64,000 nucleotides of DNA, taken from Thainema sp. Its GTDB lineage: Bacteria; Cyanobacteriota; Cyanobacteriia; Phormidesmidales; Phormidesmidaceae. Positions 4,758 through 44,191 of this stretch are shown piece by piece. Every line of letters begins with the position of its first letter. Positions within the stretch are counted from its first letter, which is position 1. A model generated the notes under the pieces. It did not search any database. It was not told where the DNA came from and was given only the letters and a program-made list of their open reading frames with translations. The stretch is from contig JBQLZK010000023.1 of the NCBI GenBank assembly GCA_052168235.1, forward strand, positions 1 through 64,000, read 5' to 3'. A program made the position numbers and the translations under genes.

Positions 4758-5287
4758 CGATAAATGTCTTTCCTCTGATGCCGTGCGGATGAACTCGGTT
4801 GGAACTATCAGGTCAATACACAGTGAGTTGTGTGACTGAGTTGGACTAAACCTGTATTCTCAGAACGCACTTGGTTGAGCCTGAATACCGAGTCAAGTTC
4901 AATACAGTTTACTTCGATCTATTGTCTAGTGTAGCTTCATGGCTCAATCACTGCCTGAGGTGATCGGAAGGGTTTTTTAAGATACAGCAGCAAGATGCAG
5001 TAGTGGTCATAGCCGCATTACGCCTTGGGGCCGTAGCATATCGTGCAAATCCGCAATGGGTTCGAGTGCAACGGAAAAATTTTTCGCCCCGGTGATTTTC
5101 GACATACGTCTACACAATACGTCTACATATAATCTGCACATCATCAACGGTTTCACCAACTGCGATCGCAGTTGTCCCCCATAAATTCACACCATCATGG
5201 TTTTGAGCAATGTGGTACATCTTTTCGCCACATCCCTGCGGCGCACGCATGGTCAGTTGACGTATGAACTTGGAGCAGTATGGATGG

Positions 5288-8200
5288 TTAAACCGCTTGA
5301 CCGTTTAACTGTGACAAAGTCTCTTCCTGCTGTCGGACAGCGGCTAGTAGTTCGGCATTTTGAATAATCACGCCGACTTGGTTATTGAAAATTTGCAGAC
5401 ATTTGCGATCGCTATCGTCAAAGCTGGTTCGCAGCACGTCAGGCACCTTTCCCTGCTGCATCAGAGCGTAATCCGGAATGACATTGGCTAGCTTTTTATT
5501 GACCAGTTGCGTCACGCCGATCAGCTCACCATCCGAGTCCAAAATTGGCATACAGAGCAGGCTACAGGTGCGATAGCCGGACTTCTGATCGGTTCGCTTC
5601 GCCGTGGCCGCGTCGGGATGATCGTACAAGTCAAAGGGAATATTCAGCACGTCACCTGTAGCGGCGACCTGTCCGGCAAAGCCTTGGCCAACATTGACGC
5701 GGATCTCCTGATAATCCTCTGCACCTGTTCCGGTGGGAATTTGCGTCCAAAGCTGCTGCCGTGCGTCATCCAGCAGCCAGAGCGTCCCCCGATCGGCATT
5801 CATCAAGTCTTTGGCCGCATCGATTACTCGATCCAGCAGTTCAGCTGGATTCACTCCATTACCAGACAGGGAACGAGTCGCCGCCATCAGGGCCGCCGCT
5901 ACCCGCTGACCCCGTGCCGTCTTGTGATAGGAGCAAAAACTTTCCAGGATAAGCTGAATGGCGGCAGCATCGTGGGTGATTTTCTCCACATCGGCTTCAT
6001 CGAATCCATTCGGATCAATCCGTTCGGCTAATGGTGCCCAGTGATGCGAGTGGGGCTTGAGCTTGTTGAGCAGTTGCACCACCGCCACCAGCTTGCGCTT
6101 GGGATTAATCATCGGCAGCGCCAGCATGGTGTACGTGCGGTAGCTGTGTTCCTGATCCAGCCGCCGGGCCACGGTCGAGCGCGGATCGTCATAGAAATCG
6201 TATGGGATGTTAATTTGCGATCGCGTTGCCGCTACTTCTCCGACAATGCCCTGATCGGCAGGAACGCGAATTTCGAGATGATTGTGGTCGGCATCGGACT
6301 CGGCGATGATTGTCCAAAACTCGTTCTGTTCCTCATCGAGCAGAAAAATCGACGTGCGATCGGCTCCTACGGCTCGGCCCAGCTTGTTGGTAATTGAACG
6401 CAAGGTGGTGTCTAAAATCTCGTCGAATCCCTGAGCATCCATCACCTGATTCAGTAGCGCTAGAGTCCGACTAACCACGCTTTGGGGATGATTGGCAGCC
6501 TGCTCCTTGAGGGCCGCAAACCGCTTGGCATTTTGAATGGCCACGCCAACTTGAGTATTAAACACCTCTAGGTGCTTTTGGCTATTGCTGTCAAAACTGG
6601 CTTTGAAACAGTCGGGTGCTTCCGGCCACTGAGCGGGGTCATAGTCAGGAAAATCGCCCAAGCGTCGCTTATTCACCAACTGCGTTATGCCCAACAGTTC
6701 AGCGTTGGGGCTAAAGATCGGCATACAGAGCAGGCTGCAGGTGCGATATCCGGTTTGCTCATCAGTCTGGCGGGCCGTGGCGGAGTCGGGATGATCGTAC
6801 AAATCAAAGGGAATATTCAGCGGTTTGCCCGTGGCAGCGGTTTGGCCCACATAGCCCTTGCCGACCGGAATGCGAATTTCCTGCATCACGCCATTGCTGG
6901 TGGGGATTTTTGTCCACAGGTCGTTTTGTTCTAGATCTAGTAGCCAGAGCGTGCTCCGATCGGCGTTCATCAGCTTTTTGGCTGCATCCATCACCCGCTT
7001 GATAATTTCGTCAGAGTCCAGGCTGCTCTGAGAAATCGAGTTGGCCGCTTCATTCAGCGCTTCAGACGCCTGTAACCGCTGGGTGAGGCGATAGCAGTAC
7101 TGACAGCGCTCCAGCACCCGTTGAATCGGCGAGGCATATTCTTCCAGCAGTCGCTGATCGCTGGCGGTAAAGCCCTGGGGATTGAGCTTATCGATCAGCG
7201 GCACCTCGGCACTGCGACCGGGCTGAATTTTGTTGACCAGCTTTACAAAAGCCACAGGCATATTGTTCTGGTCGTACAGCGGCAAAAACAGCTCGTGATA
7301 AATACGGTAGCTGCCTTCCTGGTGCGGTTGAGCTGTAACCTGCTGTTCTTGCCACTCTTTAAACTCGGTAATGCGGCCCTGGGCCTGCTCATTGCTGAGA
7401 ATCCGAATTTCAGGCCGTTGACTGTTGCTTTTGGAGACAATCGACCAGAGATCGTTTTTTTCCGGATCGACAAACACAATGCTGACCCGATCGACGCTGA
7501 GCATTTCCCGCAGCTTGGCGACAATCGAGCTCAAAATCTCATCCAGGATGTAGTCAAATCCCTGCCCCTCCATCAAACTGAGCATGGACAGCAGTTTTTG
7601 CTCCTGCCGCGCCACGGTTTGCATAAAGTCGGCTCGAATACTCAACAGTGCCTGCTGAACCCATACTGAGTTGAACACAACGGCGTAGATCCGGTTGTAC
7701 ACCTGAAGCTGGCCGCCGCGCTTGACGATTAGCCCTGCGATCTGTAGCTCAAGCTGCTCACTGCGACTGCTAGCTGGAACCGCACCCTGCTCCAAAATCT
7801 GCTGATAGAATCGCAGGATTGGCCCCGTCCGATGCGCCACCCGCAAAACGCGATCGCGGATTGTCTTTAAATGCGGCGGTTCATCTTGAGCTTCCCAGTT
7901 ATCGATAATCTTGTCGTAAACTAGCTGATCAACCCACTCAGTCGTGCTGACATGCAGGGGAATACGTGGCTGACTAACCACAAACTGGCAGAGCTTCTGG
8001 GTCAGAAACGGCTGTCCGCCTGTCCAGTCCAGAATGGTTTTCAGCACCTGAAGCGGATGTTCGACCCGCTCCGCTAGTCCAGCGGCTAAGGGAGCTGCTT
8101 CTTCTAGTTGAAATCCGTGCAGATCAATTGGGCGACCCACATTAAACGGCGTGCAGCGGCTGTCCTGAATCAGCTCCGACGGAGTGGTGACACCGAGCAG

Positions 8201-8722
8201 CGCAAACGTTAGCCGATCGTAGTCATCGCAGGCTCGGATAAACACAAAGAAATCATCCAGGTTGAACGGCAAACTGCGGACGCTGTCGATTTCGTCAATA
8301 AACACCACAATGGGCGACTGCACCTCGACTAGCAGCACCTGCTCAATCAGTTCACTCAGCCGCTCAATCGGCGACAGGTAATCTCGCTCACTCAGCCAGG
8401 TGCGTAGCTGGATTGACAGGTGAAAGCTGCTGACCAGCCGCCGCATCACACCCGCATACCACTGGTCGCGAGTAATGTCCTGACTGCCAATCTTGGTCAA
8501 ATCAATCGCGGCACAGGCAACTCCCTCCTGCTTCAGCCGATGCATGGTGCGCACGCGCAAACTGGTTTTGCCCATCTGCCGCGAGTTGAGCACGTAGCAG
8601 AATTCTCCGGCCTTGAGCGCGGTGTACAGCTCTTCGTCAGCTTGGCGGACAACATAGCTAGGCGCATCAAGGGAGAGATGGCCGCCGACTTTGTAGTGAT
8701 AGTTGTAGAGGGAGGGGGGCAT
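5288..8722 (-). CDS. AAA_35-type P-loop ATPase fused to four GAF domains (two CyaB2-like tandem GAF modules)
   Basis: [41 protein letters not shown]; then GAF-A/GAF-B twice (ADR(S/G)[34 protein letters not shown]). Confidence 0.88.
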
Positions 8723-8870
8723 GGTGGGAGGGGTGAGGGAGTGGGAGGGTGAGGGAGTGGATGAGTGGGGGGTGGATGGGTAGATGAGTGGATGGGGAGC
8801 GGGGGAGAGAGGGAGCAGTAGGCGGCTCCGTTGCTCCGTTGCCCCCTTGCCCCCCTGCTCCGTTGCTCCT
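8723..8870. repeat. Degenerate octamer tandem repeats filling the intergenic spacer
   Basis: GGTGGATG/GATGAGTG-like units, then TTGCTCCG/TTGCCCCC-like units. Confidence 0.7.
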
Positions 8871-8872
8871 TA

Positions 8873-10927
8873 TTACGCAGAATCAGGCGGTGGGAGTTGG
8901 ATGCGATCGCAAAAATAGCGGCGGTAGAGTTCAAAGCTAGGAACAGCACCGTTGCCTTGCAGGTGGACGAGGCCCATGCTGTGCAGTTTGAAAATTTGCT
9001 CGGAGTCGAGCGGGACGGGGGCAGAGGCGTGCAGGATGGTGCTGTAGGCGCGGGCTAGATCGGGATACTGCTCGAACTGCCAGAGGTGACGGCGCAGGTG
9101 ATCGCTGTAGATCCCGGCTTCGGTGGGGGCGGTGTCGTGTAGCTCGGCCAAGGTGAGCTGATTTTGGGCAATGTAGTACATAGCCAGCCGCACGAGATAG
9201 GGATGACCACCAACTAGGGTCATTAGGCTGTGTACGTCGCTGTCTGCCCAGTTAAGCTGGTGGCGATGGGCCAAGTCAGCGACCTGTTCGGCTGTAAACT
9301 CTGACAGTTCAATCGGCAAACCCACGTTAAACGGCGACTGATTCACGTCCAGCGGAATGTAAACCTCGGTGGAATGCACAACGACTAGCCGCAGCTTTTC
9401 CCAGAGCTGGCTGTCGTCGCTGCCGTAGCTGGCTTCTTCATACCAAGCGCGCAGCAGGCCAAAAAAATCGTCGGCGATTTGCGGATACTGAAAGACGGCA
9501 TCCACTTCGTCTAGACCGAGGACGAGGGGACTGGCGATTTCCGGCAGCAGGTAATCTTCAAAATACGTTGTGCAGTTGTCCTTACTGCCATAAGTGTCGT
9601 CCCAGTAGGTTTCTAATCGGGGCGGCAGGTGCAGCTTACGGGCAATCTTGGTGCAGAACCAGCGCAGCAGGCTGCCGAGATCCTGAAAAATTTCCCGATC
9701 GGCATGTTGAAAACTGAGCGGAATCGCCTGATAGCCCTTTTGCGTCTGAGCATGGTGAATAATCCGCGCCATCAGCGAGGTTTTTCCCATTTGGCGGGGC
9801 GCTTTGATTCGAATCAGCATTCCCGGTCGGCCAATTTCGTCATAGCAAGCTGGCTCATAGGGCGCACGTTCGACGTAGAAGGCCGAAGCCAGACGCACTT
9901 GGCCCCTGGGAATCTCCGGTTCCGCCGTCGGCAGCGGATAGGACGATAGTGGTGCCGTCTGCGATACGGCCTGTGACTGGTCTAAATTCGACTGATCTAA
10001 ATTCGACTGATCTAAATTCGTAGAATTCTGCCCAATACCATGCTCAACGCCGTATAAACTTCGCTCAGCGCTGGGTTGATCCGCATCAAATGGGACATCA
10101 TCTACATTCAAGCTGAACTGGGTAGGGTGTTGCGTTCGGCTTTGCCGTCTCGAAGAAAATCGCAATCCAGTATCCACCGTTGGCGAATCCAGCAGCGCAT
10201 CGGTTAACCCGGTTAAATTTGACAGGTCACCCTGCTCCAAAAACTGCTGAATTGTTTGAGCAATGGACAGAGTATCGGCGCTTGATGACCACTGCCACTG
10301 AATCGCGCCCTGGAGATAATTCCGCAAATCGTGATGTAGCGCCATCTCGGCATCCGAATCGGTTCGCACTACGACCAGAAGGGGGCGATCGCCATCCTGA
10401 TTGCGCCACTGCCGCAGCCGTCGCAGTTCTTCCATCACCATTTCACTGACCGCCGTTTGCGGCGACAGCAGCAGAATAAAGCAGTCACAGCGCTTCAGCT
10501 CCAGATCCACCTGCGCCAAGCTAGCCGTATTGGACTGGAAAGGTAAAGGTGCGATCGCATCTAAATCACTGGCAAATGGTAAGTAACCAGTGGCCTCAAA
10601 CGACTGGTAAAGCGCCTCGGCCACTACTCGATCCAACTCACAGTTGCGATAGCTAATAAACACTCGCTTCTGTCGCAGGTATAGGCGCTCTAGCGCTCCT
10701 CGGATACGCTTTTTAGAAATCTTTTCACCAAGGGCTTCTGATAGCTTTTGCCATAGCCGATAGCCCACGGTTTTCTCAATATATTCGGGATTGCGTGGGT
10801 AAATCTTTTCATAGGTTTGTCCTTGCCAAGAACCAATGAAAACCCGTCGCTCTAAATCATTAAGGTGCTTGTTGGTTTTGGCATAGAGTAGTCGATCGAC
10901 TAGAGAGAGCGCATCTTGAACGTCCAT
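8873..10927 (-). CDS. HTH-like N-terminus + TIR domain + AAA_35-type P-loop ATPase
   Basis: HLNDLERRVFIGSWQGQTYEKI N-terminus; TIR RVFISY...CDCFILLLSP...[47 protein letters not shown]. Confidence 0.88.
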   Translation of the reverse strand: MDVQDALSLVDRLLYAKTNKHLNDLERRVFIGSWQGQTYEKIYPRNPEYIEKTVGYRLWQKLSEALGEKISKKRIRGALERLYLRQKRVFISYRNCELDRVVAEALYQSFEATGYLPFASDLDAIAPLPFQSNTASLAQVDLELKRCDCFILLLSPQTAVSEMVMEELRRLRQWRNQDGDRPLLVVVRTDSDAEMALHHDLRNYLQGAIQWQWSSSADTLSIAQTIQQFLEQGDLSNLTGLTDALLDSPTVDTGLRFSSRRQSRTQHPTQFSLNVDDVPFDADQPSAERSLYGVEHGIGQNSTNLDQSNLDQSNLDQSQAVSQTAPLSSYPLPTAEPEIPRGQVRLASAFYVERAPYEPACYDEIGRPGMLIRIKAPRQMGKTSLMARIIHHAQTQKGYQAIPLSFQHADREIFQDLGSLLRWFCTKIARKLHLPPRLETYWDDTYGSKDNCTTYFEDYLLPEIASPLVLGLDEVDAVFQYPQIADDFFGLLRAWYEEASYGSDDSQLWEKLRLVVVHSTEVYIPLDVNQSPFNVGLPIELSEFTAEQVADLAHRHQLNWADSDVHSLMTLVGGHPYLVRLAMYYIAQNQLTLAELHDTAPTEAGIYSDHLRRHLWQFEQYPDLARAYSTILHASAPVPLDSEQIFKLHSMGLVHLQGNGAVPSFELYRRYFCDRIQLPPPDSA
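9974..10021. repeat. 3 x 15-bp in-frame tandem repeat (NLDQS) in the TIR-ATPase linker
   Basis: gactg(g/a)tctaaattc x3. Confidence 0.85.
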
Positions 10928-11357
10928 TGCAATTGTTCAACATCCTGATAACCCAATTTGGAGTAATGCACCTGATTAAACTATTTGCAAACAGAGCTGG
11001 GATACATGGCTATAACTGAATTTAATAAACTAAAGTAAACCATCATCTATTAATTGATTTTGATTTATACTCGCTTTTTTGCAAAATAAAACTGTCACTA
11101 AAACTTTTGCGATCGCAGTATCAAATTCAATTTGATCTATGCACTATTACATCTGAAAACTGCCATGAAGCCTGTTTGTTGAATTCTAATAGTTAATGCT
11201 AATCAATCCTTAAAGATATATTGCTTAATATAATTGAAAATCAAATAAAGCATTAAATAGTCGATGGATAAATCATGAAAACAGTTTTTGGCAGAGAAGC
11301 AATAAACTGCTGAAATAGCTCTTTACTAGCTTGATGATAAGCCTATATGCTTAAACT

Positions 11358-11379
11358 AATTGCGATTTAGATCACAAAT
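11358..11379. promoter_or_regulatory. Putative CRP-type (cAMP receptor protein) binding site
   Basis: aat-TGCGA-TTTAGA-TCACA-aat; core matches TGTGATCTAGATCACA at 14/16; lies in an AT-rich divergent promoter region. Confidence 0.6.
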
Positions 11380-11749
11380 GATAACAGGAATGTGTCACAA
11401 CATTGTCAACTGTAAATCACAAGTAGAGATCTGGCGAAAAACTCAACCTAAAAACACATCAGAAAATTGAATAAGTCTGATTAATTAGGGCTAAAGAGAG
11501 GTTTTATGAGGTTTTATGAGTTATGAGATTAAGTCCTGATCTACAGTGGTAGAGGTCTGTATTCGATAGTTAATTGACTGAAATGGGATCAGTTAACATC
11601 TTCTAAATTCATTTTTTATTTTGATGAGGTTTTCTGGTTGTAGTTTCCTAAGGCGCATCACACACTAAGAGCATAGGTAGTGAGAAGCTATCGATCTGGC
11701 TAACAGAACAGATTAGATATTTGCCCCGCCGCATCAGGAGAACACAGTC

Positions 11750-12613
11750 ATGTTTACAGTTCTAGAGATTACGACAATCGACCTATTGGAAAAAATTAAA
11801 GCAACCTATTATCAGCTTTATGGCAACCAATCGACTCAATCAATTGTCTTTTTGATTGAAGCTGCAGAGCGAATTTTAGCTACTTTGGCTCAGGGCAATG
11901 CCCCCTATCACAATGTCGAGCATACGATTTTAGTGACAGCTGTTGGGCAAGAAATTTTACTCGGTAAGCAGCGACTGGACGGACAGGTCACACCCCATAA
12001 CTGGCTACATTACACCTTGGCACTGCTATGTCACGATATTGGATACATCCAGGGCGCTTGTCTGCAAGACGTACCTTGGGAAAGTCAGTATTGGGTCAGT
12101 AGCGATTCTCTTCGAGACGGCAAAGCTGATCACACCATCACGCTCAACTCTGGCGCAACCGATGCTAGCTTAGCGCCCTATCACATTGAGCGCAGCAAGC
12201 ATTATGTACACGAACAGTTCAGCACGTACTCTTTCATCAATGTGGAGCTGATTCAGCGCTACATTGAGCACACTCGCTTTCCCGTCCCGACCCACTGCGG
12301 CCATCAATCCACGTCAGATTACGCAGGGCTGACGCGGGCAGCAGATTTGATTGGTCAGCTCAGCGATCCCCGCTATTTGCAAAAAACGGTGGCGCTATTT
12401 GCTGAGTTTGAAGAAACGGGCGCAAATCGGCGTTTGGGCTATAACAATGCCGATGATTTGTGGCTTGGCTATCCCACGTTTTTCCGCAAGTTGGTTTATC
12501 CCTATTTAGGTGATGCTATTCGCTATCTACATGCAACGTTTGCAGGTAAACAAGTTGTCGCCAGCCTTTACAGCAACGTGGCAACTGCGGAAAAGTGGTC
12601 ACGGCTCAATTAG
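11750..12613 (+). CDS. HD-domain metal-dependent phosphohydrolase (Npun_R2479-like; class I PDE-like motifs)
   Basis: APYHNVEH, LLCHDIGY, YHIERS, RAADLIGQL; AGGAG RBS upstream. Confidence 0.85.
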   Translation: MFTVLEITTIDLLEKIKATYYQLYGNQSTQSIVFLIEAAERILATLAQGNAPYHNVEHTILVTAVGQEILLGKQRLDGQVTPHNWLHYTLALLCHDIGYIQGACLQDVPWESQYWVSSDSLRDGKADHTITLNSGATDASLAPYHIERSKHYVHEQFSTYSFINVELIQRYIEHTRFPVPTHCGHQSTSDYAGLTRAADLIGQLSDPRYLQKTVALFAEFEETGANRRLGYNNADDLWLGYPTFFRKLVYPYLGDAIRYLHATFAGKQVVASLYSNVATAEKWSRLN

Positions 12614-12805
12614 GTTGTCTTGTTGACTCAAGAGGTACTTGCAATTTGGGTCACCTCCATGAATTGGACTCACTCTCTGTGGAGACAGAGACATGCCCTT
12701 TGCACAACGACAGCATCCTCAGTTTTCCTACTTTCGTTAAGCGAACTCATTACGACTTTGTGTTAGCATAAGCTTAACACATGTTCATAAAGGAATCGTT
12801 CAATT

Positions 12806-13381
12806 ATGGTCAAGATTGTTGGTCTAGCCGGAAGCTTACGCCCTGAATCCTATAGCTACAGGGCGCTGCAAGTCGCCGCAGAACGAGCTAAGCACTATGG
12901 CGCAAACGTCGAAATTTTGGACTTGCGCGAAATGAACTTGCCGTTTTGTGACGGGACGGGAGACTATCTCGATTATCCTGATGTGGAGCGGCTCCGTGAG
13001 GCAGTTAAGCAGGCTGATGGTTTAATCTTAGCTACACCGGAATATCACGGTAGCGTCAGTGGAGTGCTGAAAAATGCGCTGGATTTGATGAGCTTTGAGC
13101 ATCTGTCCGGCAAAGTGACGGGCGTAATTAGCGTTTTGGGTGGCCAGTCCAACAGCAATGCGTTGAATGATTTGCGGGTCATCATGCGCTGGGTTCACGC
13201 TTGGGTGATTCCAGAACAGGTTGCGATCGGACAAGCGTGGCAAGCGTTTAACGAGCAGGGTCAACTTAAGGATGAAAAGCTGGCAGAGCGGATGGATGGC
13301 TTTGCGAAGAGCCTGGTGGAAAATACTCAGCGGCTGACAACTCATTCTGTGGCACTCGCTAGCAGCAGCAGCAAAAATTGA
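12806..13381 (+). CDS. NADPH-dependent FMN reductase
   Basis: GSLRPES, ATPEYHGSVSGVLKNALD. Confidence 0.93.
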   Translation: MVKIVGLAGSLRPESYSYRALQVAAERAKHYGANVEILDLREMNLPFCDGTGDYLDYPDVERLREAVKQADGLILATPEYHGSVSGVLKNALDLMSFEHLSGKVTGVISVLGGQSNSNALNDLRVIMRWVHAWVIPEQVAIGQAWQAFNEQGQLKDEKLAERMDGFAKSLVENTQRLTTHSVALASSSSKN

Positions 13382-31321: not shown

Positions 31322-32389
31322 ATGACTACAAAAACGGGGTTACAGATAGAGCTGCTAGAGCAGAGTTTCGAAAAAATTAAGCCTCAAGCGAACGATTTTG
31401 TGACTAGTTTCTACGATAATCTCTTCACGGATTATCCAGCCGCAAAGCCGCTATTTGCTCATACAAATATGTCTGAGCAAGGTAATAAATTGCTGATGTC
31501 TTTGGTGCTAGTCGTTGAAAATTTGCGTAAGCCAGAAGTACTGAGCAATACCCTAAAAGGTTTGGGCGCACGCCATGTTAAATATGGTGCGCTGCCAGAA
31601 CATTATCCGTTAGTTGGCAACACGTTGCTAAAAACGTTCGAACAGTATCTGAGTGAGGATTGGACACCTGAAACCAAGCAGGCTTGGGTGGATGCCTACG
31701 GTGCCATCACCGAAATCATGCTGGATGGAGCTGATTATTCCCAAGTTGAGGTGGATTTGGCCTCTGCGCCTGCACCTGCTGTGCCCGCAACGGATACTGA
31801 AACGGGACTGAAGGTGGAACTGCTAGAACAGAGCTTTGAGAAAGTGAAGCCGCAAGCTAATGCGTTTATTACTAGCTTCTACGACAATCTGTTCATCGAC
31901 TATCCAGCCGCGAAGCCGTTGTTCGCCCATACCAACATGGCGGAGCAGGGCAATAAGCTCTTGGCCTCTTTAGTTCTAGTTGTAGAAAACTTGCGCAAGC
32001 CGGACGTACTGAGTGGCAGCCTGAGAGGTTTGGGTGCTCGTCATGTCAAATATGGCGCACTGCCAGAGCACTACCCGCTCGTCGGCAATACGCTGCTGAA
32101 AACTTTTGAGCAGTATCTGGGTGAAGACTGGACACCTGCTACCAAGCAGGCTTGGACAGATGCCTATGGAGCGATTACCGAAATTATGCTTGATGGTGCC
32201 GATTACTCTCAGGCGGATGTCCAGCTTGATTCGGTTGATCCTGCTTCTGTTGCAGCGGCAATGCCGACTGTTCCAGACGCATCACCAGCCGAACCAGCCA
32301 GCGAAGCTGCACCGATGAGTAGCAAAAAACTGGCTGCCTTTGGTGCCGGAGCACTGGGCATTATCGTTCTACTCATTCTCTTTTTGTAG
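31322..32389 (+). CDS. Tandem two-domain globin (flavohaemoglobin/Vgb-type) with C-terminal membrane anchor
   Basis: Two near-identical domains: SFY (B10 Tyr), PLF (CD1), EQ (E7), GARH (F8 His), HYPLVG, AW..AY; hydrophobic C-terminal tail; no reductase domain. Confidence 0.92.
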   Translation: MTTKTGLQIELLEQSFEKIKPQANDFVTSFYDNLFTDYPAAKPLFAHTNMSEQGNKLLMSLVLVVENLRKPEVLSNTLKGLGARHVKYGALPEHYPLVGNTLLKTFEQYLSEDWTPETKQAWVDAYGAITEIMLDGADYSQVEVDLASAPAPAVPATDTETGLKVELLEQSFEKVKPQANAFITSFYDNLFIDYPAAKPLFAHTNMAEQGNKLLASLVLVVENLRKPDVLSGSLRGLGARHVKYGALPEHYPLVGNTLLKTFEQYLGEDWTPATKQAWTDAYGAITEIMLDGADYSQADVQLDSVDPASVAAAMPTVPDASPAEPASEAAPMSSKKLAAFGAGALGIIVLLILFL

Positions 32390-32407
32390 ACATCTTGGGG
32401 AGCTGTC

Positions 32408-33058
32408 ATGGCTGACCAGCGCCGCCGAAGATCCAGTTTGCGATCGCTACTTACCGTCAAGACCGCCATTATTTTCATCTGCATCGTGCTGATCGGCTGG
32501 GTTGGAACCGCCTTTGCGCTAGATAAAAAGACCATTTTTTTGCCAGGCGAAACGTCCGAAGGTCATTTTTTATTTGAAGCCTCCTGTTCCTCTTGCCACG
32601 AGGGATTTAAGCCCGTCAGTAACGACACCTGTATGCGCTGTCATGAAGCTGAAATGGCGGAGGATGCCCACGGCCCCAAGAAGTTTCGCGATCCGCGCTG
32701 GGCGGCTGAACTTGAAAAGTTGGAGGTACTAACTTGTACGACCTGCCACAACGAGCATGTTCACATGTTTGGTCGGGGTGTACATCTGCAGCCCGATCTC
32801 TGTATGACCTGCCACGAGGGCATTATCAGCGGCGATCTAAAAAGTCACGACGGCTTTACCGCCGATGGCTGCTGGACAGCTGGTTGTCACAACTATCACG
32901 ATCACCGCTCGATTTCCACCGGATTCATCCGCCAGAATCTCGATCAGCCGATGATGTTGCCAACCCCGACTATGCCGGAACGCTTAGTAGAAGCTGAGTT
33001 AAAGACTGCACCAAACCCGGATCTGAGTCGTGAGTTCTTGGCGGGAGGTGCACCATGA
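32408..33058 (+). CDS. Membrane-anchored/exported multiheme cytochrome c (4 CxxCH + 1 CX4CH)
   Basis: CSSCH, CMRCH, CTTCH, CMTCH, CWTAGCH; N-terminal hydrophobic helix. Confidence 0.9.
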   Translation: MADQRRRRSSLRSLLTVKTAIIFICIVLIGWVGTAFALDKKTIFLPGETSEGHFLFEASCSSCHEGFKPVSNDTCMRCHEAEMAEDAHGPKKFRDPRWAAELEKLEVLTCTTCHNEHVHMFGRGVHLQPDLCMTCHEGIISGDLKSHDGFTADGCWTAGCHNYHDHRSISTGFIRQNLDQPMMLPTPTMPERLVEAELKTAPNPDLSREFLAGGAP

Positions 33059-33975
33059 TGCACTCTCCAAGAAGCTTAATATCCCGTCTGATTGCAACCC
33101 TGGCAGCGGCTCCCACCCACCTACTCACCTACCCTTCCACGTTCACTACCTTAGCGAGAAACAGTCTAATCCTCTCCCTCGCAGTCTTAACTCTCGTCTT
33201 CAGCCCTGCCGTCCCAGCCGCTGCCGATATTACCGATGCTGAATTGGAGGAGATTACTCAGCTTTGGCAAGATAGTGCCCACGCTTTAGCCGATGTCAAC
33301 TGTTCGAGCTGTCACTTGGCCGACGAAACGAACGCGCTGATTGCTCAGCCGACTCACGAGAGCTGCCAGTCGTGTCACGAGCAAGCGGTGGAAACCTTTC
33401 TGCTCGGCAAACACGGCATTCGGCTGCTGGAAGGACAGTCGCCGCTGACTCCGGCAATGGCTCGCCTTCCGATGCAGCCAGCCGCACACGGCAAGCAGAT
33501 GAACTGCAACGCCTGCCACAACGTGCACTCAGTTGATACCTACCAGGCGTCGGTTGATTCCTGTCTCACCTGCCACAACGACACCCACTCGTTGAACTAC
33601 AAAAATTCCAAGCACGCCCAGCTCCTTCTGGCTGAAGGCGAGCTGCCCCGCCCGTCATCTGCATCTGTTACCTGTGCCACCTGTCACCTCCCTCGCCATG
33701 AATCGGCATCGGGCACGGTGCTCGTGAACCACAACAACACCTTCACGCTGCTACCCCGCGATCGCATGGTGAAAGAGGTCTGTCTGAACTGTCACGGCAT
33801 GGAATATGGCTACAACAGCATCTTTGATGACGAACTGGTGGAATCCAATTTTGCCCGTCCCCCTGATCAAACCCTCCAGACTCTGGAGATGGTGCGCGCA
33901 CTGGAGGAAACCCGGTCGGGCAGCGCATCAGCCTCGGATTCTCAATCAGAATCTACTCCAGAATCAGGCTCATGA
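33055..33975 (+). CDS. Exported hexaheme cytochrome c
   Basis: CSSCH, CQSCH, CNACH, CLTCH, CATCH, CLNCH; signal peptide ...SPAVPAAA; ATGA overlap with the upstream gene. Confidence 0.9.
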   Translation: MMHSPRSLISRLIATLAAAPTHLLTYPSTFTTLARNSLILSLAVLTLVFSPAVPAAADITDAELEEITQLWQDSAHALADVNCSSCHLADETNALIAQPTHESCQSCHEQAVETFLLGKHGIRLLEGQSPLTPAMARLPMQPAAHGKQMNCNACHNVHSVDTYQASVDSCLTCHNDTHSLNYKNSKHAQLLLAEGELPRPSSASVTCATCHLPRHESASGTVLVNHNNTFTLLPRDRMVKEVCLNCHGMEYGYNSIFDDELVESNFARPPDQTLQTLEMVRALEETRSGSASASDSQSESTPESGS

Positions 33976-34082
33976 GGTGCCAAACCTCATGACCTAACTA
34001 GCGGATGCTCGCTCCCACACTCAAACACCATATTCAAACCGATTTTAGTCCTGAGGCTAAAAACATTAGGAAGGAGAACGAC

Positions 34083-34745
34083 ATGATTGCAAATCACTAT
34101 TTAAGCGGCTGGACGAGATGGCTACGCACCAAGACCGTTGCGTTTATTGCCATTATCCTCAGCGTTTGCGTTATTGCTGTGGGCTGTAGCAACAGCACCG
34201 CACAGCAGGATTCAGCGGATGGAGTTGCCCCAGAGTTGGTGGCGGATTATATTCACACCGCACTGGCGGCAGACCGCACGGCCTACACCAAGCACGTCGT
34301 CAACCGGGCTAAAACCCTAGAGGGCAAAGTCAAAGATGATGGTGTCCTCGCAGTTGAAGCGACTGAAGGCTGGCAGCAAACCAATGGTATTCCCCTGCCT
34401 GCTCAGATGTTCCGTCTGGGTTCTGAGATCGCCTCAGAGGATGGCACCTTTACCTATAACCTGATTTCGCCTTGGAATATTAATGACAGCCAAGCTCCTA
34501 AAAATGAGTTTGAGCAAACAGCGATGCAGCAGGTTTTGGACACCGGAGAACCGTATAAGGACTATCAGGAAGTAGGTGGAATGCGCTATTTCTCGGCGCT
34601 GTATCCCGACATCGCGGTCGCGGAAGCCTGCGTCACTTGCCACAATACTCACCCGGTTCACCTCGAACGCTATCCCGATAAAGTGTTCGAGATGGGCGAC
34701 GTGATGGGCGGCGTCATGATTAATATTCCTCTAGAAGGGGCTTAA
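34083..34745 (+). CDS. DUF3365 (Tll0287-like) c-type heme lipoprotein
   Basis: Lipobox AVG-C, PLPAQMFR, PKNEFE, ACVTCH, GDVMGG; AGGAG RBS before ATG 34083. Confidence 0.85.
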   Translation: MIANHYLSGWTRWLRTKTVAFIAIILSVCVIAVGCSNSTAQQDSADGVAPELVADYIHTALAADRTAYTKHVVNRAKTLEGKVKDDGVLAVEATEGWQQTNGIPLPAQMFRLGSEIASEDGTFTYNLISPWNINDSQAPKNEFEQTAMQQVLDTGEPYKDYQEVGGMRYFSALYPDIAVAEACVTCHNTHPVHLERYPDKVFEMGDVMGGVMINIPLEGA

Positions 34746-34749
34746 AGTT

Positions 34750-34787
34750 TTCCACAGAGGAGAAGGCTAGCCTTCTCCTCTGTGGAA
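34750..34787. repeat. 38-bp perfect palindrome inside the globin-cytochrome operon
   Basis: ttccacagaggagaaggct|agccttctcctctgtggaa. Confidence 0.85.
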
Positions 34788-34891
34788 TCACAGCAAAATT
34801 AGTGCGATCGCACCTTTTCAATCTTTCAACTTTCTGACTTTTCAACTTTCCAACCTTTCACGACGGTGCTTCAATAGGCTTGACCCACGCC

Positions 34892-35497
34892 ATGAAACCC
34901 AGATTTGCTACGCTGATCATTTTGACGCTGGTGACGGCAGCTTTACTCCTGCCGTTTGCGTTTAGTGCAGGCTATTTAGATGTGCTGAGAAATCGTTCGG
35001 TCGATCTGCATCAGGTGTTGAGAGGTGAACTCTATAAGCAGGCTACGGGTTATTTATCGTTGACCTTCGTTGGGCTAGAAATGGCGTTAACGGTACGCAA
35101 ACGCAGCCTCGGCTGGAAGTTCAAAATTCGCATTCCTGGCTCGATGCAGTTTTGGCGCAGTTTGCACATTTTTGCCGGAGTGGGCCTCGTTGCCTTAACG
35201 CTGGTGCACACGATTGGCTCGACGGGCGCTAATTTCAACTCCGTTTTTCTCTGGGTCTTTTGGGGCGTAACGCTATCTGCATTAATCGGCGCAGTGGCTG
35301 AAACGGGCATTTTGGAATCCCCCCGCAAATACTTCGGCTTGGCATCATCCAAAGTCGGCAATCTAGCGCTCGGTACCACCAAAGGCCCCCTCATCCGAGG
35401 TTTACGCGCTTTCTGGTTATCGACGCACATTATCCTCGTCACCGTCTTCTGCCTCATGCTCGGCGTTCATATTTTTCTGGCCTACTACTACCAGTAA
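34892..35497 (+). CDS. Multi-pass membrane protein with two pairs of intramembrane His (possible di-heme b, ferric-reductase-like)
   Basis: About 5 hydrophobic helices; WRSLHIF...LVHT and WLSTHII...GVHIF. Confidence 0.7.
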   Translation: MKPRFATLIILTLVTAALLLPFAFSAGYLDVLRNRSVDLHQVLRGELYKQATGYLSLTFVGLEMALTVRKRSLGWKFKIRIPGSMQFWRSLHIFAGVGLVALTLVHTIGSTGANFNSVFLWVFWGVTLSALIGAVAETGILESPRKYFGLASSKVGNLALGTTKGPLIRGLRAFWLSTHIILVTVFCLMLGVHIFLAYYYQ

Positions 35498-35511
35498 ACA
35501 GCAGTAACGTT

Positions 35512-35982
35512 ATGCCAAATCGACTCAACACTCGCCTAACCTGGGCCGTCGGCTTAGTGGTTGTGTTCATTGTGGGTACTCTATTCCTGACGCGCCCTTC
35601 CGTGTCAACCAGCAGCCTGTCGCCGGTTTCGGGTCTGATGTCGCTGCGGCAGATGGCGCAGAGTTCGATGCTGTATGACGATGCGATCGCAAATCAGAAA
35701 CCGACGCTCGTCGAGTTTTATGCTGACTGGTGTACCACCTGCCAGTCTCTTGCGCCGACGCTGCATGAGCTAGAGCAGGATTACGCTAACCAAGTTAATT
35801 TTGTCATGCTCAATATCGACGATCCGCGCTGGGCTGAGCAAGTCGATCAGTATGAGGTTACTGGAGTCCCCAAAATTGTCCTGCTCACGACCGATCAGCA
35901 GGTTTCAGACACCTTTATTGGCAGACTGCCCCGCTCTGTTCTAGCCGAAGCCATTGGGCAACTGCTGCCGTCAAATTCCTAA
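35512..35982 (+). CDS. Membrane-anchored thioredoxin-like thiol:disulfide protein (TxlA-like)
   Basis: N-terminal TM, EFYADWCTTC, GVP. Confidence 0.88.
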   Translation: MPNRLNTRLTWAVGLVVVFIVGTLFLTRPSVSTSSLSPVSGLMSLRQMAQSSMLYDDAIANQKPTLVEFYADWCTTCQSLAPTLHELEQDYANQVNFVMLNIDDPRWAEQVDQYEVTGVPKIVLLTTDQQVSDTFIGRLPRSVLAEAIGQLLPSNS

Positions 35983-37691: not shown

Positions 37692-40601
37692 TTAATAGAC
37701 GGCACTCCGGATAGAGTCATGGCTGAGTTGAAGATTGGGTGCAATCGGTAGGGTGACGGTAAAGGCAGTTTTGCGATCGCAACTTTCCACCTGAATCTCA
37801 CCGCCCAGATGATGCACCAGTTCTCGCACCAGGGCTAAGCCTAAGCCTGTGCCGCCCTGCTGCCATCGGTCTGTGCTGGGCACCCGATAAAACTTTTCAA
37901 AAATATGGGGCAGTTCTTGGGTTGGAATGCTGGCTCCCGTGTTGCAGACGGTGATCTGGAGCTGATCGAGCTGATTGCTGTGCTGCGGCAGGATAGCTAC
38001 TAGTTGAATCTGTTCATGGGGCGGCGTGTACTTACAGGCATTGTGCAGCAGTTCACCAACAATGCGGCTGATGCCATCCTGATTCGATTCAATCATGGGC
38101 AGCGGTTGCGGAATTGCGACCTCAAGCCGAAGCTGACGGGCATTGATATGGCCCTGGAAGGAATCGGCCAGCGTGGGCAAGAGCAGATTCAGATCAACCT
38201 CTGCTAGTTCTAGCGGTTGGCGATTGGCTTCCAAGCGCTGCAAATCCAGCAGGTCATTCACCAAGTTAATTTCTTGCTGACATTCTGCATTAAGGATTTT
38301 GAGATACTGAGCAATGCGCCGCACCAGCGATTCTGGATGAGCCGATAAATCTAGGTCGAGGGCTGACTCTGGGTGAGAATTGACATGAGAATGAGCTGGT
38401 GTCGCTGTGTGGGATTTGCCATTAGTAGGATTGGGGGCATCGACTCGCGTGGAATCGATGGCGTCTTGCGGCGACAGATGGGTCATGACCAGTTGGCGGA
38501 GCGTCAGATTCAGCATTTGCAGCGCCATTTTCATATTGGTAATCGGCGATCGCAACTCATGGGACACCGTACTGAGGAAGTCATCTTTGAGCTGATTAAG
38601 TTGCTCAAGCGCTTCCACCTGCATTTGGGCAGCGGCAAACAGGCGGGCCTGCCGAATTGCGATCGCACATTGATTGGCCACCTGCTGCGCGAGCTGAATC
38701 TCGGGCTGGGTGAAAATTTGGTTTTTGGGGCGAGTTAACCACAAATCGCCGAGGATGCCCTGATCGTCAAAAATCGGACAGGCCAGGAACGTAATTTCTC
38801 CCCGCACGGGATGAAAGTCCACAAACTGCACCCATTGCCGCTGCAGCAGTTGAGCATAGACGTCTTTGCGGCCCGACATCGGCCAAATCTGGTTGACTCC
38901 AGTGGGGACTTCAACCGTCGCGTATTCGTAGCGCACCCGTGACTCTTGGCGCTCCAGGTCGTAAAATGCCGTATCGCAGGTTTGAGCGTCTAAGCCAATC
39001 GCTAGATCTTTGACCACGGCCTGCATAATCTGCTGCTCATCTAGGCTGTCTCGCACGTTGTCGGTAATCCGCTTGAGCAGCGCGTCAAACTGGCGGGCTT
39101 GCTGCAGTTGGGCCGTTCGCTCCTGTACCTGCTGCTCCAGCTTTTGATTAAATTCCTGCACGTGACCATAAAGCTGGGACTGCTGAATTGCGATCGCAAC
39201 TTGGCTGGCTAGCTGTTTCAACAATTCGATTTCCATCTCCGGCCAGGGACGCGGCTCAGAACACTGATTGGCCAAGAGTAGCCCCCACAGTTGCTGATCA
39301 AACACAATCGGCACCACTAAATTGGCCCGCACGCCGAACGATTCCAGCAGTTCGACATGGCAGGGGGTGAGATTCGCTTGATAAACATCCTGAATCGACT
39401 GAATTCGCCCCTGCTGATACTGCTCGACATACCGCTGGGCAAAACAGTGGTCGGTAATCGTGCGGCCCAAAGCGCTGAATTGCGACTGCATCACCGATTC
39501 CACAATTACCGTACCGCTCCAGTCAGCATGAAAGCGGTAGATCAGCACCCGCTCAATCTGCAAAAACTGACGAATTTCCGTGACCGTGGTCTGCAAAATG
39601 GTCTCGAGGTCCAGCGATTGACGGATGCGCTGACCAATATCAGCCACGAGTTTCGTCTGTTTGGCCTGCTGTCGCAGCAGTTGTTCCGCCTGGATATGGA
39701 CGGTGATGTCCTGCACCACACCATCACGCCGGAGCGGATTGCCGTCTACATCGCAAATGAGATAACCGCGATCGCGCAGCCAGCGGATCGTGCCATCCGG
39801 ACGAATGATCCGATAAATGGCTTCGCCACAGGGATTCTCGACCCCGATTTGGGCAAAGATCTGCTTTGTGCGAACCTGATCGTCGGGATGAATCACCTCA
39901 AACCAAAGATTAGGATTGTCAAAAAATGCCTCAACTGGATAGCCATATACGGCTTCAGCGACCGGATTCAGATAAATCATGTACGATTTATCGACGGCAG
40001 TTGACCAGACCACTTCTTCCAGCGAGTTTAAGATACTGCTCAGGCGAGCTTCACTATCCTGTAGCGTTTGCTCAACCGCTTGGCGAACCCGGATCTCATG
40101 CAATAGCGCCTGATTCGCAGCCGTGAGGGCGGCTGTGCGTTCCTCCACCCGCTGTTCAAGGGTTTGATTGAGCTGTTCAATTTCGGCTTTAGCGGCCTGT
40201 AGCGCCAGTTGATTTTGAACGCGGAGGACGACCTCTTGCGGGTCAAAGGGCTTGGTAATGTAGTCAACTCCGCCCACCTCGAAGGCCTTAGCCTTGTCGC
40301 CAATGCTATCTAAGGCGCTGAGGAAAATAATGGGAATATGGCAGGTTTCGGGTGCAGCTTTGAGCTGTTGACAGAAACTGTAGCCGCTAATGTCGGGTAA
40401 TCGAATATCGAGCAGGATTAAATCGGGCGGAGCGGCTTGAATTCCCATCAGCGCCATTGAGCCACTGATGGCCTTGCGGATGTCATAGCCTTGGTCGCTG
40501 AGGGTTTTCGCGAGGAGCGACAGGTTCTCCAGCGAATCATCCACAATTAAAATATGCGGTTGGGATTGGCAATCGGACGAATATCCAGTCTGCCCTGTCA
40601 T
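37692..40601 (-). CDS. Sensor kinase REC-PAS-GAF(DXCF cyanobacteriochrome)-GAF-HisKA-HATPase
   Basis: N-terminal REC; PAS (IHPDD); GAF with ERVLIYRF, DHCF, PCHVELL, VRANLVVPI; VSHELRSP; GGTGLGL. Confidence 0.9.
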   Translation of the reverse strand: MTGQTGYSSDCQSQPHILIVDDSLENLSLLAKTLSDQGYDIRKAISGSMALMGIQAAPPDLILLDIRLPDISGYSFCQQLKAAPETCHIPIIFLSALDSIGDKAKAFEVGGVDYITKPFDPQEVVLRVQNQLALQAAKAEIEQLNQTLEQRVEERTAALTAANQALLHEIRVRQAVEQTLQDSEARLSSILNSLEEVVWSTAVDKSYMIYLNPVAEAVYGYPVEAFFDNPNLWFEVIHPDDQVRTKQIFAQIGVENPCGEAIYRIIRPDGTIRWLRDRGYLICDVDGNPLRRDGVVQDITVHIQAEQLLRQQAKQTKLVADIGQRIRQSLDLETILQTTVTEIRQFLQIERVLIYRFHADWSGTVIVESVMQSQFSALGRTITDHCFAQRYVEQYQQGRIQSIQDVYQANLTPCHVELLESFGVRANLVVPIVFDQQLWGLLLANQCSEPRPWPEMEIELLKQLASQVAIAIQQSQLYGHVQEFNQKLEQQVQERTAQLQQARQFDALLKRITDNVRDSLDEQQIMQAVVKDLAIGLDAQTCDTAFYDLERQESRVRYEYATVEVPTGVNQIWPMSGRKDVYAQLLQRQWVQFVDFHPVRGEITFLACPIFDDQGILGDLWLTRPKNQIFTQPEIQLAQQVANQCAIAIRQARLFAAAQMQVEALEQLNQLKDDFLSTVSHELRSPITNMKMALQMLNLTLRQLVMTHLSPQDAIDSTRVDAPNPTNGKSHTATPAHSHVNSHPESALDLDLSAHPESLVRRIAQYLKILNAECQQEINLVNDLLDLQRLEANRQPLELAEVDLNLLLPTLADSFQGHINARQLRLEVAIPQPLPMIESNQDGISRIVGELLHNACKYTPPHEQIQLVAILPQHSNQLDQLQITVCNTGASIPTQELPHIFEKFYRVPSTDRWQQGGTGLGLALVRELVHHLGGEIQVESCDRKTAFTVTLPIAPNLQLSHDSIRSAVY

Positions 40602-40620
40602 GTCAAATCTCCCTGCTCGC

Positions 40621-43600: not shown

Positions 43601-43875
43601 CGATAGTGCCAGTAAAACCAGCCGACGAAGATGGCCTCAGCCGCAAAGATTAGAATTGAATAAGGGTGTCCCCACAGAAAAAACGTGCAGCTAGCGGCAA
43701 AAATGGCTGCCGTAATTCCCCAGCGGTAGCCATAGAGACACAGCACTAGCCAAACTGCGATCGCACCGAACAAAAAGTCAATGTGAAAGAACAGCGACCA
43801 GCGGAAATAGTTACCGAGGAAGCCAGCCGCCACCAGGAACGCTAATCCGACAGTCGACTGATGATGTCGTGTCAC
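40621..43875 (-). CDS. Multi-TM hybrid histidine kinase (membrane sensor, Cache-like, HAMP-like, HisKA, HATPase, REC)
   Basis: Hydrophobic N-terminus, [38 protein letters not shown] start. Confidence 0.92.
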
Positions 43876-44191
43876 TAATAAGACCTTGCTCCATCAATAC
43901 GGGGAAACTCAGCCACACGCCTTGATCTTAGTGTTTAACGTCTTCTACCTTTGGGTAGAACTGTCATTCCTGGTACAAATCTAAATACTTTTTAATCGGC
44001 TTAAGCAAACTGCAACTGGCTTAGGATGATAATCACGCTCAAGAGGTCAGTCTGGTAGGGATGAAATGCCTATGGCATGGGCTTTTGAGCTTATAGCTGT
44101 TTTGGGATGTTAGGATGCCTTCTGTATAATTAGTAACATTTGCGGTGCTAGTCATAGAGGTTGTCGCCAGCGTGATGAGTTGAGTGAACCG

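Follow-up and report, generated by a model that had tools for sequence, protein, structure and literature searches.

The stretch of DNA considered here, referred to below as the window, comprises 64,000 nucleotides from the cyanobacterium Thainema sp. (assembly GCA_052168235.1, contig JBQLZK010000023.1, positions 1 to 64,000 of the forward strand), and it contains a group of three genes that we tentatively interpret as a split molecular switch of the STAND type (signal transduction ATPases with numerous domains) gated by cyclic AMP (cAMP). Two of the genes lie on the minus strand: P1 (P0001, 5288..8722, 1144 aa), the presumed sensor subunit, which carries a nucleotide-binding oligomerization domain (NOD) of the AAA_35 family followed by two tandem GAF units resembling those of CyaB2, and P2 (P0002, 8873..10927, 684 aa), the presumed output subunit, which consists of a helix-turn-helix (HTH)-like domain, a TIR domain, a disordered linker, and an AAA_35 NOD. 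The third, here called the HD gene (P0003, 11750..12613, plus strand, 287 aa), is divergent from P2 and encodes a relative of the Npun_R2479 family with a predicted class I phosphodiesterase (PDE) fold. A sequence-only reading of the same DNA had placed three open reading frames (ORFs) at these coordinates, in exact agreement with the ORF list. The gap between P2 and P1 (8723..8872, 150 nt) is of low complexity, being composed of G/A-rich and C/T-rich short repeats with periods of 8–23 nt as detected by Tandem Repeats Finder (TRF), and in several orthologous loci the automatic ORF calls of P2 and P1 abut or overlap. The spacer between P2 and the HD gene spans 822 nt, is AT-rich (GC about 0.35), and holds no ORF longer than 36 aa, so that a hidden gene within it is unlikely.

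The arrangement of these genes is conserved across cyanobacteria. A scan of species-representative genomes, analyzed by tblastn, provided 65 loci, 33 of which contain a P1 of the GAF type; two of these have too little upstream sequence, leaving 31 that can be evaluated. In 24 of the 31, P1 is preceded on its own strand by a P2 orthologue, which carries the N-terminal domain, TIR, and AAA_35 wherever the contig spans the N-terminus, and the HD gene, which can be evaluated in 22 of the 24 P2-bearing loci, is found divergently upstream of P2 in 21. The HD gene is seen in none of the seven GAF-type loci without P2 and in none of the 32 paralogous loci described below. None of the seven flanking genes of the window adjoins the trio in the other loci by tblastn, the only match elsewhere being to SurE (39% identical) in L008, a locus without P2 or the HD gene. 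The association that had been suggested from this single sequence is thus borne out as a co-occurring unit. Relatives of P1 are numerous, with at least 120 full-length sequences of 58–94% identity in many cyanobacterial families and orders, and as far as the sequences indicate the trio is inherited vertically. P2 and P1 are separated in four loci (L012, L024, L031, and L032); the genes inserted between them in L012 and L032 were considered as components of the system and rejected, being accessory cassettes instead (PIN, XisH/XisI, DUF4058, RusA, and similar).

The domain composition of P1 is well defined. Its AAA_35 domain (7673..8683, minus strand, residues 14–350) scores 82.4 bits against a Pfam cut-off of 27, alongside matches to GAF, GAF_2, and GAF_3, and the translation reads RQMGKTS as the Walker A motif at residues 48–54 and VFIDEID in the Walker B region; both Walker A and the FIDEID of Walker B are invariant in 22 orthologues, as are G51, K52, D143, and E144 individually. 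The remainder of the protein aligns with the tandem GAF structure of Anabaena CyaB2 (1YKD) at an E-value of 2.8e-147, a likeness far stronger than the resemblance that the sequence-only reading had proposed, and the Pfam matches together with these alignments confirm its count of four GAF domains and no enzymatic output. GAF1 (7178..7600, approximately residues 375–515) is a degenerate domain of the CyaB2 GAFa type (E 6e-19 against 1YKD GAFa), which is without the NIPFDFY..DPRS pocket segment, the part corresponding to NIPFDFYHDPRS having been replaced or lost, and which is degenerate at the same place in the consensus of the 22 orthologues. GAF2 (6497..7177, residues 516–742, 303 bits) is of the GAFb type, GAF3 (5864..6472, residues 751–953, 198.6 bits) of the GAFa type, and GAF4 (5318..5863, residues 954–1135, 218 bits) again of the GAFb type, all four on the minus strand. 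According to PMC4411481, the cAMP contacts of CyaB2 GAFb are R291, T293, I308, D356, and N359. GAF2 retains R589, T591, the I of WTKI, and D654, with T in place of N359, and GAF4 retains R978, T980, the I of WTQI, and D1045, with S in place of N359, so that four of the five contact residues are identical in each, the fifth being a water-mediated contact. The contact residues and the alignments therefore identify P1 as an AAA_35 ATPase followed by two CyaB2-type (a–b) units. The GAF domains share about 70% identity with a cAMP receptor domain of housekeeping type, and we consider it likely, from the residue-level agreement, that they bind cAMP.

P2 shares the ATPase domain but differs in everything that precedes it. 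Its AAA_35 domain (8909..9910, minus strand, residues 340–673) scores 489.3 bits (E 5.6e-147, cut-off 27), with Walker A RQMGKTS at residues 378–384 and LGLDEVD in the Walker B region of the translation, and K382 of Walker A and D473/E474 of Walker B are kept throughout the 121 sequences compared; the presence of AAA_35 in both ATPases, with RQMGKTS and hhhDEhD motifs, is accordingly upheld by Pfam scores and motifs alike. The TIR domain (10232..10666, minus strand, residues 88–232), likewise anticipated, matches TIR_2 at 38.8 bits (E 1.5e-9, cut-off 28). In a profile of 26 TIR regions, the motif SEMVxEEL (SEMVMEEL here) aligns with SRWCLDEL of RUN1 and SDWCWDEL of Cat1, and on this alignment the canonical catalytic glutamate corresponds to E167 of P2 (codon 10427-10429); relative to S-x-W-C-x-x-E-L, the W is replaced by M. 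We take the aligned glutamate of RUN1 to be catalytic, and the deposited RUN1 variant 7S2Z reads LDAL, an alanine replacing the glutamate that aligns with E167. Between TIR and AAA_35 lies a linker (9902..10213, minus strand, residues 239–342) that is predicted to be disordered (pLDDT, the predicted local distance difference test, below 50) and contains NLDQS three times, encoded by a 15-nt tandem repeat at 9975-10020 (3.1 copies, 96% matches, TRF); its length differs greatly among orthologues.

The AlphaFold model of P2 (mean pLDDT 72.6) comprises a helical part (residues 1–85), an alpha/beta TIR domain (88–232), the disordered linker (239–342), and then a nucleotide-binding domain, a helical domain, and a winged-helix module. 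The best Foldseek match is the TIR-NB-ARC core of RPP1, a plant NLR (nucleotide-binding leucine-rich repeat receptor) of the TIR class, at E 3.9e-9, with further matches to archaeal ORC2/Cdc6, PAB2304, the NB-ARC domain of NRC1, Avs3/4, a STAND-TPR protein, and CED-4 (E up to 1e-4), and the AAA_35 part in particular matches STAND/ORC-like folds; a PDB sequence search with P0002 returned no matches. Because of this model and these fold matches, P2 reads as a TIR-NLR-like protein lacking its own sensor, and P1 as a NOD protein with a sensor and without an effector. The HTH-like domain (10673..10927, minus strand, residues 1–85) is modeled as helices at pLDDT 80–90; PF26355 is precomputed on the best 120 P2 homologues, and the N-terminal domain of one homologue weakly matches Sigma70_r4_2 in a local copy of Pfam (E 0.018). 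The same domain is also seen at the N-terminus of an NB-ARC STAND ATPase beside a paralogous AAA_35 pair (L063:1113-2552, minus strand), and a further copy lies at L041:11-259 (minus strand).

Structure prediction and phylogeny both bear on whether the two ATPases work together. Complex prediction with the AAA_35 domains of P1 and P2 gave a score of 0.62 (0.62, 0.62, and 0.64 in the individual runs), a mark that 116 of 157 solved complexes and 2 of 215 mismatched pairs attain; the best control scored 0.02. The runs share at least 75% of contacts, and the partner pLDDT is at least 83. In the predicted 1:1 interface, residues 76–94 of P1 meet residues 443–454 of P2, and these segments are clade-specific invariant motifs. 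The prediction thus favors the split pair of mutually binding ATPases that had been proposed from the sequence. A tree of 114 AAA_35 domains separates a P1 clade (70) from a P2 clade (44) with support of 100; the P2 domains partnered with GAF proteins form one group of 24–25 rows, the non-GAF P1 domains form one clade of 39 rows, also with support of 100, and the same subclades are repeated in the P1 and P2 halves, which therefore suggests that the pair is ancient and co-inherited. We consider it probable that the three genes form a dedicated module in which P1 and P2 assemble as a heteromer.

The GAF-type pair belongs to a wider set of related pairs. In the 32 other loci, the P1-type AAA_35 is fused at its C-terminal side to WD40, TPR, histidine kinase, a periplasmic-binding-protein domain, NACHT, or GUN4, to CHASE2, TRADD-like_N, or trypsin, or to nothing recognized, and in 24 of the 32 it neighbors a P2-type AAA_35 gene, the effector residing on the P2-type domain and the sensor on the P1-type domain that follows. 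The N-termini of the paralogous P2-type proteins include trypsin with TIR, CHAT with or without TIR, a cyclase domain with TIR, TIR alone, Sigma70_r4 with TIR, and protein kinase. Such pairs and arrays are found in L026 and L035–L065 (e.g., L037:8867-13596, L039:1084-9822, and L053:4077-15252), with an upstream effector gene followed by one to three P1-type genes. One of them, L058, belongs to a record titled as an Actinomycetota metagenome-assembled genome and consists of a cyclase-TIR-AAA_35 gene and two P1-type genes, which group with cyanobacterial sequences in the tree; this placement could reflect a binning error or gene transfer.

The HD protein matches the NCBIfam model NF045583 (Npun_R2479 family HD domain-containing metalloprotein) at E 3.9e-100 and 334.6 bits, which is below the 400-bit cut-off, and PF28239 is precomputed for P0003 and for its homologues among the matches listed; a PDB sequence search gave no match at E ≤10. 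The YHN..H, HD, and AD motifs quoted in the sequence-only reading are all present in the translation, as YHNVEH, CHDIGY, and RAADLIG, and H54, H58, H95, D96, H145, and D199 are invariant in 20 orthologues. This His/Asp set (H-x3-H, HD, D) may be equivalent to the metal-binding and acid residues of PDEs. The structural model has a pLDDT of 92.9, and all fold matches listed, to rank 50, are catalytic domains of class I cAMP/cGMP PDEs such as PDE10A, PDE6, and PDE1B (best E 3e-4, probability 1.00, query-normalized TM-score (TMq) 0.52–0.58, about 320 aligned columns). On the strength of the model, hydrolysis of a cyclic nucleotide by the HD protein seems somewhat better supported than its opposite. 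The family is large, a profile search at E ≤0.001 returning 2057 representative clusters, and every named relative is cyanobacterial. Twelve longer relatives among the 150 matches listed were scanned, and six of them (P0370, P0393, P0412, P0430, P0443, and P0449) bear a C-terminal GAF domain; P0363 (929 aa) consists of a caspase domain and then two HD copies, and P0362 (1373 aa) consists of a P1-clade AAA_35 domain, 48% identical to P0001 and 25% to P0002, and then three HD copies, some with altered His/Asp motifs. By sequence, this last natural fusion links the ATPase to the HD family in the Rosetta-stone sense.

The spacer between P2 and the HD gene contains a conserved array of direct repeats that had gone unseen in the sequence-only reading. 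In a k-mer survey of 20 non-redundant HD–P2 spacers, TGAGGTTTT and TTTTCTGGT occur in 13–15 spacers as compared with a shuffle maximum of 7–9. With up to two mismatches, TGAGSTTTTCTGG is found on the HD-sense strand of 21 of the 22 spacers, exactly in 11, and on the antisense strand of none of the 22, against a background of eight two-mismatch matches in 90.6 kb of other DNA free of ORFs, both strands included. The core TGAGGTTT, with up to one mismatch, occurs 73 times in the sense and 10 times in the antisense orientation, and 23 of 51 neighbor spacings are exactly 10 bp. Most spacers have box doublets or triplets located 43–118 bp upstream of a single proximal box, which abuts TT(G/A)nnn; a conserved aAACTAa element that could be a -10 element comes about 24 nt beyond the box. 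In the window, the distal array (11497..11524, plus strand) is made up of AGAGGTTTT, TGAGGTTTT, and TGAGTTAT (TRF period 10, 100% matches). The proximal box TGAGGTTTTCTGG (11625..11637, plus strand) precedes the HD ATG by 125 nt; TTGTAG comes next, and the -10-like ACACTAA lies 24 nt beyond the box. The 64 kb contain no exact match to TGAGSTTTTCTGGTT other than the 15-mer TGAGGTTTTCTGGTT (11625-11639), within which the proximal box falls. A scan of 5000-12900 for sigma-70 promoters and terminators found fewer sites than in shuffles and is uninformative for that reason.

A reading of the boxes as RNA structure was considered and is not favored: they are direct rather than inverted repeats, and the proximal one lies upstream of the -10-like element. 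The layout is, by analogy, what one would expect where an oligomeric activator acts on the HD promoter. The boxes occur only where the HTH-bearing P2 occurs, and P2 contains the only HTH-like domain of the conserved unit; the boxes thus point to a putative transcriptional output through the HTH of P2. That this domain itself binds the boxes, an assignment made by association, is to us a serious candidate that falls just short of an even call. Two related observations concern incomplete loci. In L028:5855 and L029:1261, both from Coleofasciculus and both with a P1 without P2 nearby, a box-like ATAGGTTTTCTGG lies about 180–200 nt upstream of P1 on the P1-sense strand, and in L001, where the HD gene has been lost within 3 kb, two elements stand upstream of P2, one CRP-like and the other a degenerate TGAG box oriented in the HD sense (L001:2114 and L001:2307).

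A second type of cis-element, a near-consensus CRP box, had been proposed in the same spacer. The element TGCGATTTAGATCACA (11361..11376, no strand assigned) differs at one position from TGTGA-N6-TCACA, which is the consensus for cyanobacterial CRP/SyCRP1 in PMC2633013. The box is present, but within the window it does not stand out: there are 26 CRP-like matches with up to two mismatches where 28.09 are expected, 69 of 100 shuffles reach 26, and a claim of significance from the window alone was rejected, as the count is no higher than chance. Support comes instead from its recurrence, which is not universal: boxes with up to one mismatch occur in 8 of the 22 orthologous spacers (the window, L002, L016, L019, where the box is perfect, L021, L025, L027, and L034), about 8-fold over the background, where other ORF-free DNA contains six in 90.6 kb (0.066/kb). 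The corresponding Poisson P of 8.5e-6 ignores kinship, three of the eight loci being related Planktothrix, and one of the background sites lies upstream of P2 in L001. The CRP-like boxes are situated on the P2 side of the TGAGGTTT array, and in five of the eight spacers they precede the P2 ATG by 117–164 nt. A CRP gene was not found among the scanned ORFs of the window.

Taken together, these data allow us to outline a model, in which the trio would be a cAMP-gated split STAND switch of cyanobacteria with feedback through the HD protein and optional TIR catalysis; we favor it among the readings considered here while giving it a little less than an even chance. The sensor P1 would bind cAMP through GAF2, GAF3, and GAF4 in the manner of the CyaB2 tandem GAF, and P1 and P2 would join through their AAA_35 domains into an ATP-dependent hetero-oligomer, as suggested by the conserved pairing, the matching trees, and the predicted interface. 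Assembly would cluster the HTH-TIR modules of P2, whose HTH domains may bind the 10-bp phased TGAGGTTT boxes together with the proximal TGAGSTTTTCTGG box, and such binding, judging from the cis-element alone, would switch on the divergent HD gene. The HD protein, as a PDE-like enzyme of class I by fold and motifs, would then degrade cAMP and close a negative feedback loop. In about one-third of lineages, including this one, the CRP-type box nearer P2 may add CRP–cAMP control of the P2–P1 operon. The TIR domain of this copy keeps E167 and may also cleave NAD+ on assembly; across the family, NAD+ cleavage appears dispensable, and the TIR domain is more likely to serve as an assembly scaffold. 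A bolder version, which we think doubtful, would see the trio as a bipartite NLR-like transcription switch, in which a mostly non-catalytic TIR scaffold sets the HTH domains on the 10-bp phased TGAGGTTT boxes so as to induce the class I PDE-like enzyme, forming a self-contained cAMP homeostat and a housekeeping relative, possibly the ancestor, of the diversified AAA_35 pairs in filamentous cyanobacteria.

A number of observations weigh against the cAMP-gated switch. Seven of the 31 evaluable P1 loci (L004, L008, L009, L015, L018, L028, and L030) have no P2 within 4.7–10 kb, and L001 keeps P2–P1 with no HD gene within 3 kb. The passing complex prediction may reflect, in part, likeness to solved AAA+/STAND oligomers. 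The HTH that the sequence-only reading assigned to P2 is backed by the helical N-terminus of the model and by PF26355 on homologues, but the N-terminal domain of P2 itself has no significant match in the local Pfam copy, and the name HTH_VMAP-M9 given to the family by the ESM Atlas (score 0.82) is a lead only. The direct repeats could also be bound by a different regulator, such as a response regulator. The proposed likeness of the HD protein to class I PDEs likewise holds for the fold, in the matches listed to rank 50, but not for the family model: P0003 matches no Pfam family at E ≤0.01, PDEase_I included, for which reason it is not filed in the PDEase_I family, and the fold match has a root-mean-square deviation above 7 Å and a TM-score of only about 0.55. 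Finally, the strict conservation of E162 and E166 in the TIR domain makes a non-canonical catalytic arrangement possible, which would restore the TIR-output model considered next.

That earlier model, which the sequence-only reading had put forward, holds that cAMP binding to P1 makes P2 oligomerize and thereby turns on its TIR domain as an NADase or as a synthase of a signal nucleotide, with the HD protein removing cAMP and CRP providing feedback, and with cell death, developmental lysis, or immunity as the outcome. It draws on the TIR-NOD architecture of P2 and its best structural match to RPP1, on the canonical E167 kept in this copy, on E162 in 121 of 121 and E166 in 120 of 121 family members, and on the typical killing effectors (trypsin, CHAT, and TIR) of the paralogous pairs. 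The P2 family itself fits it poorly: the E167 column is E in only 70 of the 121 members (Q in 23, I in 7, M in 6, L in 5, K in 3, A in 2, V in 2, and others in 3) and in 10 of the 23 syntenic orthologues, while 15 of 15 paralogous TIR domains keep EE, including the canonical glutamate, and TIR is the least conserved part of P2, with 30–47% identity as compared with 54–77% for the N-terminal domain and 63–74% for AAA_35. To judge from these alignments, the TIR domain is probably not the conserved output of P2, and cAMP-driven activation of a TIR NADase does not stand as the family-wide mechanism. Moreover, the model is at odds with the sensing of an endogenous second messenger, with vertical inheritance, and with the lack of any matching PADLOC system. 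We therefore regard both this model as a whole and, taken separately, NADase activity as the main conserved output as unlikely, though worth keeping in view.

A less probable alternative, to which we attach little weight, would give the HD protein another substrate, such as a product of the TIR domain (a cyclic ADP-ribose isomer or another NAD-derived nucleotide) or a different cyclic nucleotide, with an unlinked regulator binding the TGAGGTTT boxes. The missing PDEase_I match is compatible with it, as are the fusions of HD domains to AAA_35 in P0362 and to a caspase domain in P0363, and one proteomics preprint, in a table, lists Npun_R2479 as a putative cGMP-specific PDE, which would support a different cyclic nucleotide. 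Against it, all the listed fold matches are cAMP/cGMP PDEs, and the HD gene is encountered only beside the pair in its GAF (cAMP) version, none of the 32 paralogous loci, TIR-bearing or other, containing it.

Slightly less plausible still is an anti-phage system of the STAND type, akin to Avs or to the systems of Kaur et al., in which a cyclic nucleotide derived from infection would be the signal read by the GAF domains, and the HD protein would serve as effector or as an enzyme that resets immunity. The sister systems with WD40/TPR sensors and peptidase/TIR effectors do resemble the conflict systems of PMC7159879, Avs3 and Avs4 are among the fold matches of P2, and the TIR domain of P0002 weakly matches ThsB in NCBIfam (E 6.4e-5) and, as a ThsB-like TIR, in PADLOC-DB 2.0 (E 0.0018). 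That same PADLOC scan, however, gave no match for P0001 or P0003, and the surroundings of the trio are those of an ordinary cyanobacterial chromosome, with ftsH, surE, rsmH, GUN4, folD, and pyrD-like genes among others in the window, housekeeping genes as immediate neighbors, and no mobile-element signs among the scanned window ORFs. High sequence conservation across orders, GAF domains close to those of a housekeeping cAMP receptor, and a conserved promoter architecture suggestive of ordinary regulation also speak against it. An immune or cell-death role, which had been raised for this locus, is consequently not favored, given vertical inheritance, identities of 58–94% across orders, housekeeping neighbors, and the lack of a PADLOC system. 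That the three genes are chance neighbors without a shared function is scarcely credible, as the seven P1 loci without P2 nearby are outweighed by the presence of P2 in 24 of 31 loci and of the HD gene in 21 of 22, by flanking genes of which none of the seven recurs beside the trio, by matching P1 and P2 trees, by the natural AAA_35–HD fusion, and by the predicted interface between the two ATPases.

Elsewhere in the window, two further groups of co-directional genes were observed. At 37692-46984 there are three large signaling genes, encoding a REC-PAS-GAF-HATPase protein (969 aa), a hybrid histidine kinase (1084 aa), and a multi-GAF protein (930 aa). At 31322-35982 lie genes for a 355-aa protein with two globin stretches, an unassigned ORF, and a cytochrome c3-like protein, and the cluster continues with a Tll0287-like protein, a second unassigned ORF, and a thioredoxin, possibly forming a unit for redox or heme sensing. 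Rfam and tRNA scans of the window found nothing.

Several known systems share parts of this organization. Plant TIR-NLRs such as RPP1, the best structural match, and ROQ1 resemble P2 in having a TIR domain followed by a STAND nucleotide-binding domain; the trio differs from them in having no leucine-rich repeats, in placing its sensor, a cAMP-type GAF array, on a separate protein, in its additional N-terminal HTH-like domain, in a catalytic glutamate that is not conserved in the P2 family, and in being bacterial, chromosomal, and vertically inherited. Sensor/executor pairs are known among NLRs, namely the paired plant NLRs and NAIP–NLRC4, and the likeness here is that a NOD protein bearing the sensor would work with a NOD protein bearing the effector that is encoded beside it. 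MalT is an ATP- and inducer-dependent oligomer with an HTH of the LuxR type that binds asymmetric direct-repeat MalT boxes, the proximal site lying beside the -35 element. It shares with the trio the combination of a STAND NTPase, an HTH, and a small-ligand sensor, as well as direct-repeat boxes that include a promoter-abutting proximal site, whereas the trio splits these functions over two polypeptides, its HTH is N-terminal and of another family (PF26355), a TIR domain lies between HTH and NOD, and binding to the boxes is putative.

The individual modules have their own relatives. Anabaena CyaB1/CyaB2 (1YKD) are close homologues of GAF2, GAF3, and GAF4, with cAMP contacts that are largely kept, but P1 is without a cyclase or PAS output, carries its two tandem units after AAA_35, and has a degenerate first GAF. 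Class I PDEs (PDE10A, PDE6, PDE1B, and PDE2), several of which are regulated by GAF domains, match the HD protein in predicted fold; the HD protein has an invariant YHNxxH, HD, and AD-L motif set, and some HD relatives are GAF-fused; in contrast to them, the HD protein is without a PDEase_I match among hidden Markov models, has only 287 aa, and belongs to its own cyanobacterial family (NF045583/PF28239). The NTP-dependent conflict systems of multicellular bacteria (Kaur et al. 2020, PMC7159879) resemble the sister AAA_35 pairs with their trypsin, CHAT, TIR, or kinase effectors and WD40/TPR sensors, and PF26355 is named after vWA-MoxR associated proteins; unlike these systems, the GAF version is conserved and not diversifying. 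The accessible text and two supplement files of that paper make no mention of AAA_35 or of the GAF/HD trio, nor do the accessible main texts of PMC8195603 and PMC13581612 mention AAA_35. Literature searches, the scope of which excluded preprint supplements, found no description in print of the trio or of AAA_35/PF14516 with TIR, in line with the initial statement that the combination had no known description. STAND/NLR-like switches are already known; what seems new is their combination with cAMP-GAF sensing and a PDE.

If the proposed model is true, the trio would represent a third class of cAMP receptor and output in cyanobacteria, besides CRP and the GAF-cyclases, and it would identify a bacterial family of class I PDE-like enzymes in organisms whose cAMP PDE is poorly defined. 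It would also provide a bacterial pair of NLR-like ATPases, one sensor and one executor, for which the small-molecule ligand is known and STAND activation could be tested directly in vitro, and it would bear on how TIR domains shift between catalytic and scaffolding roles, while the conserved box array offers an immediately testable regulon motif.

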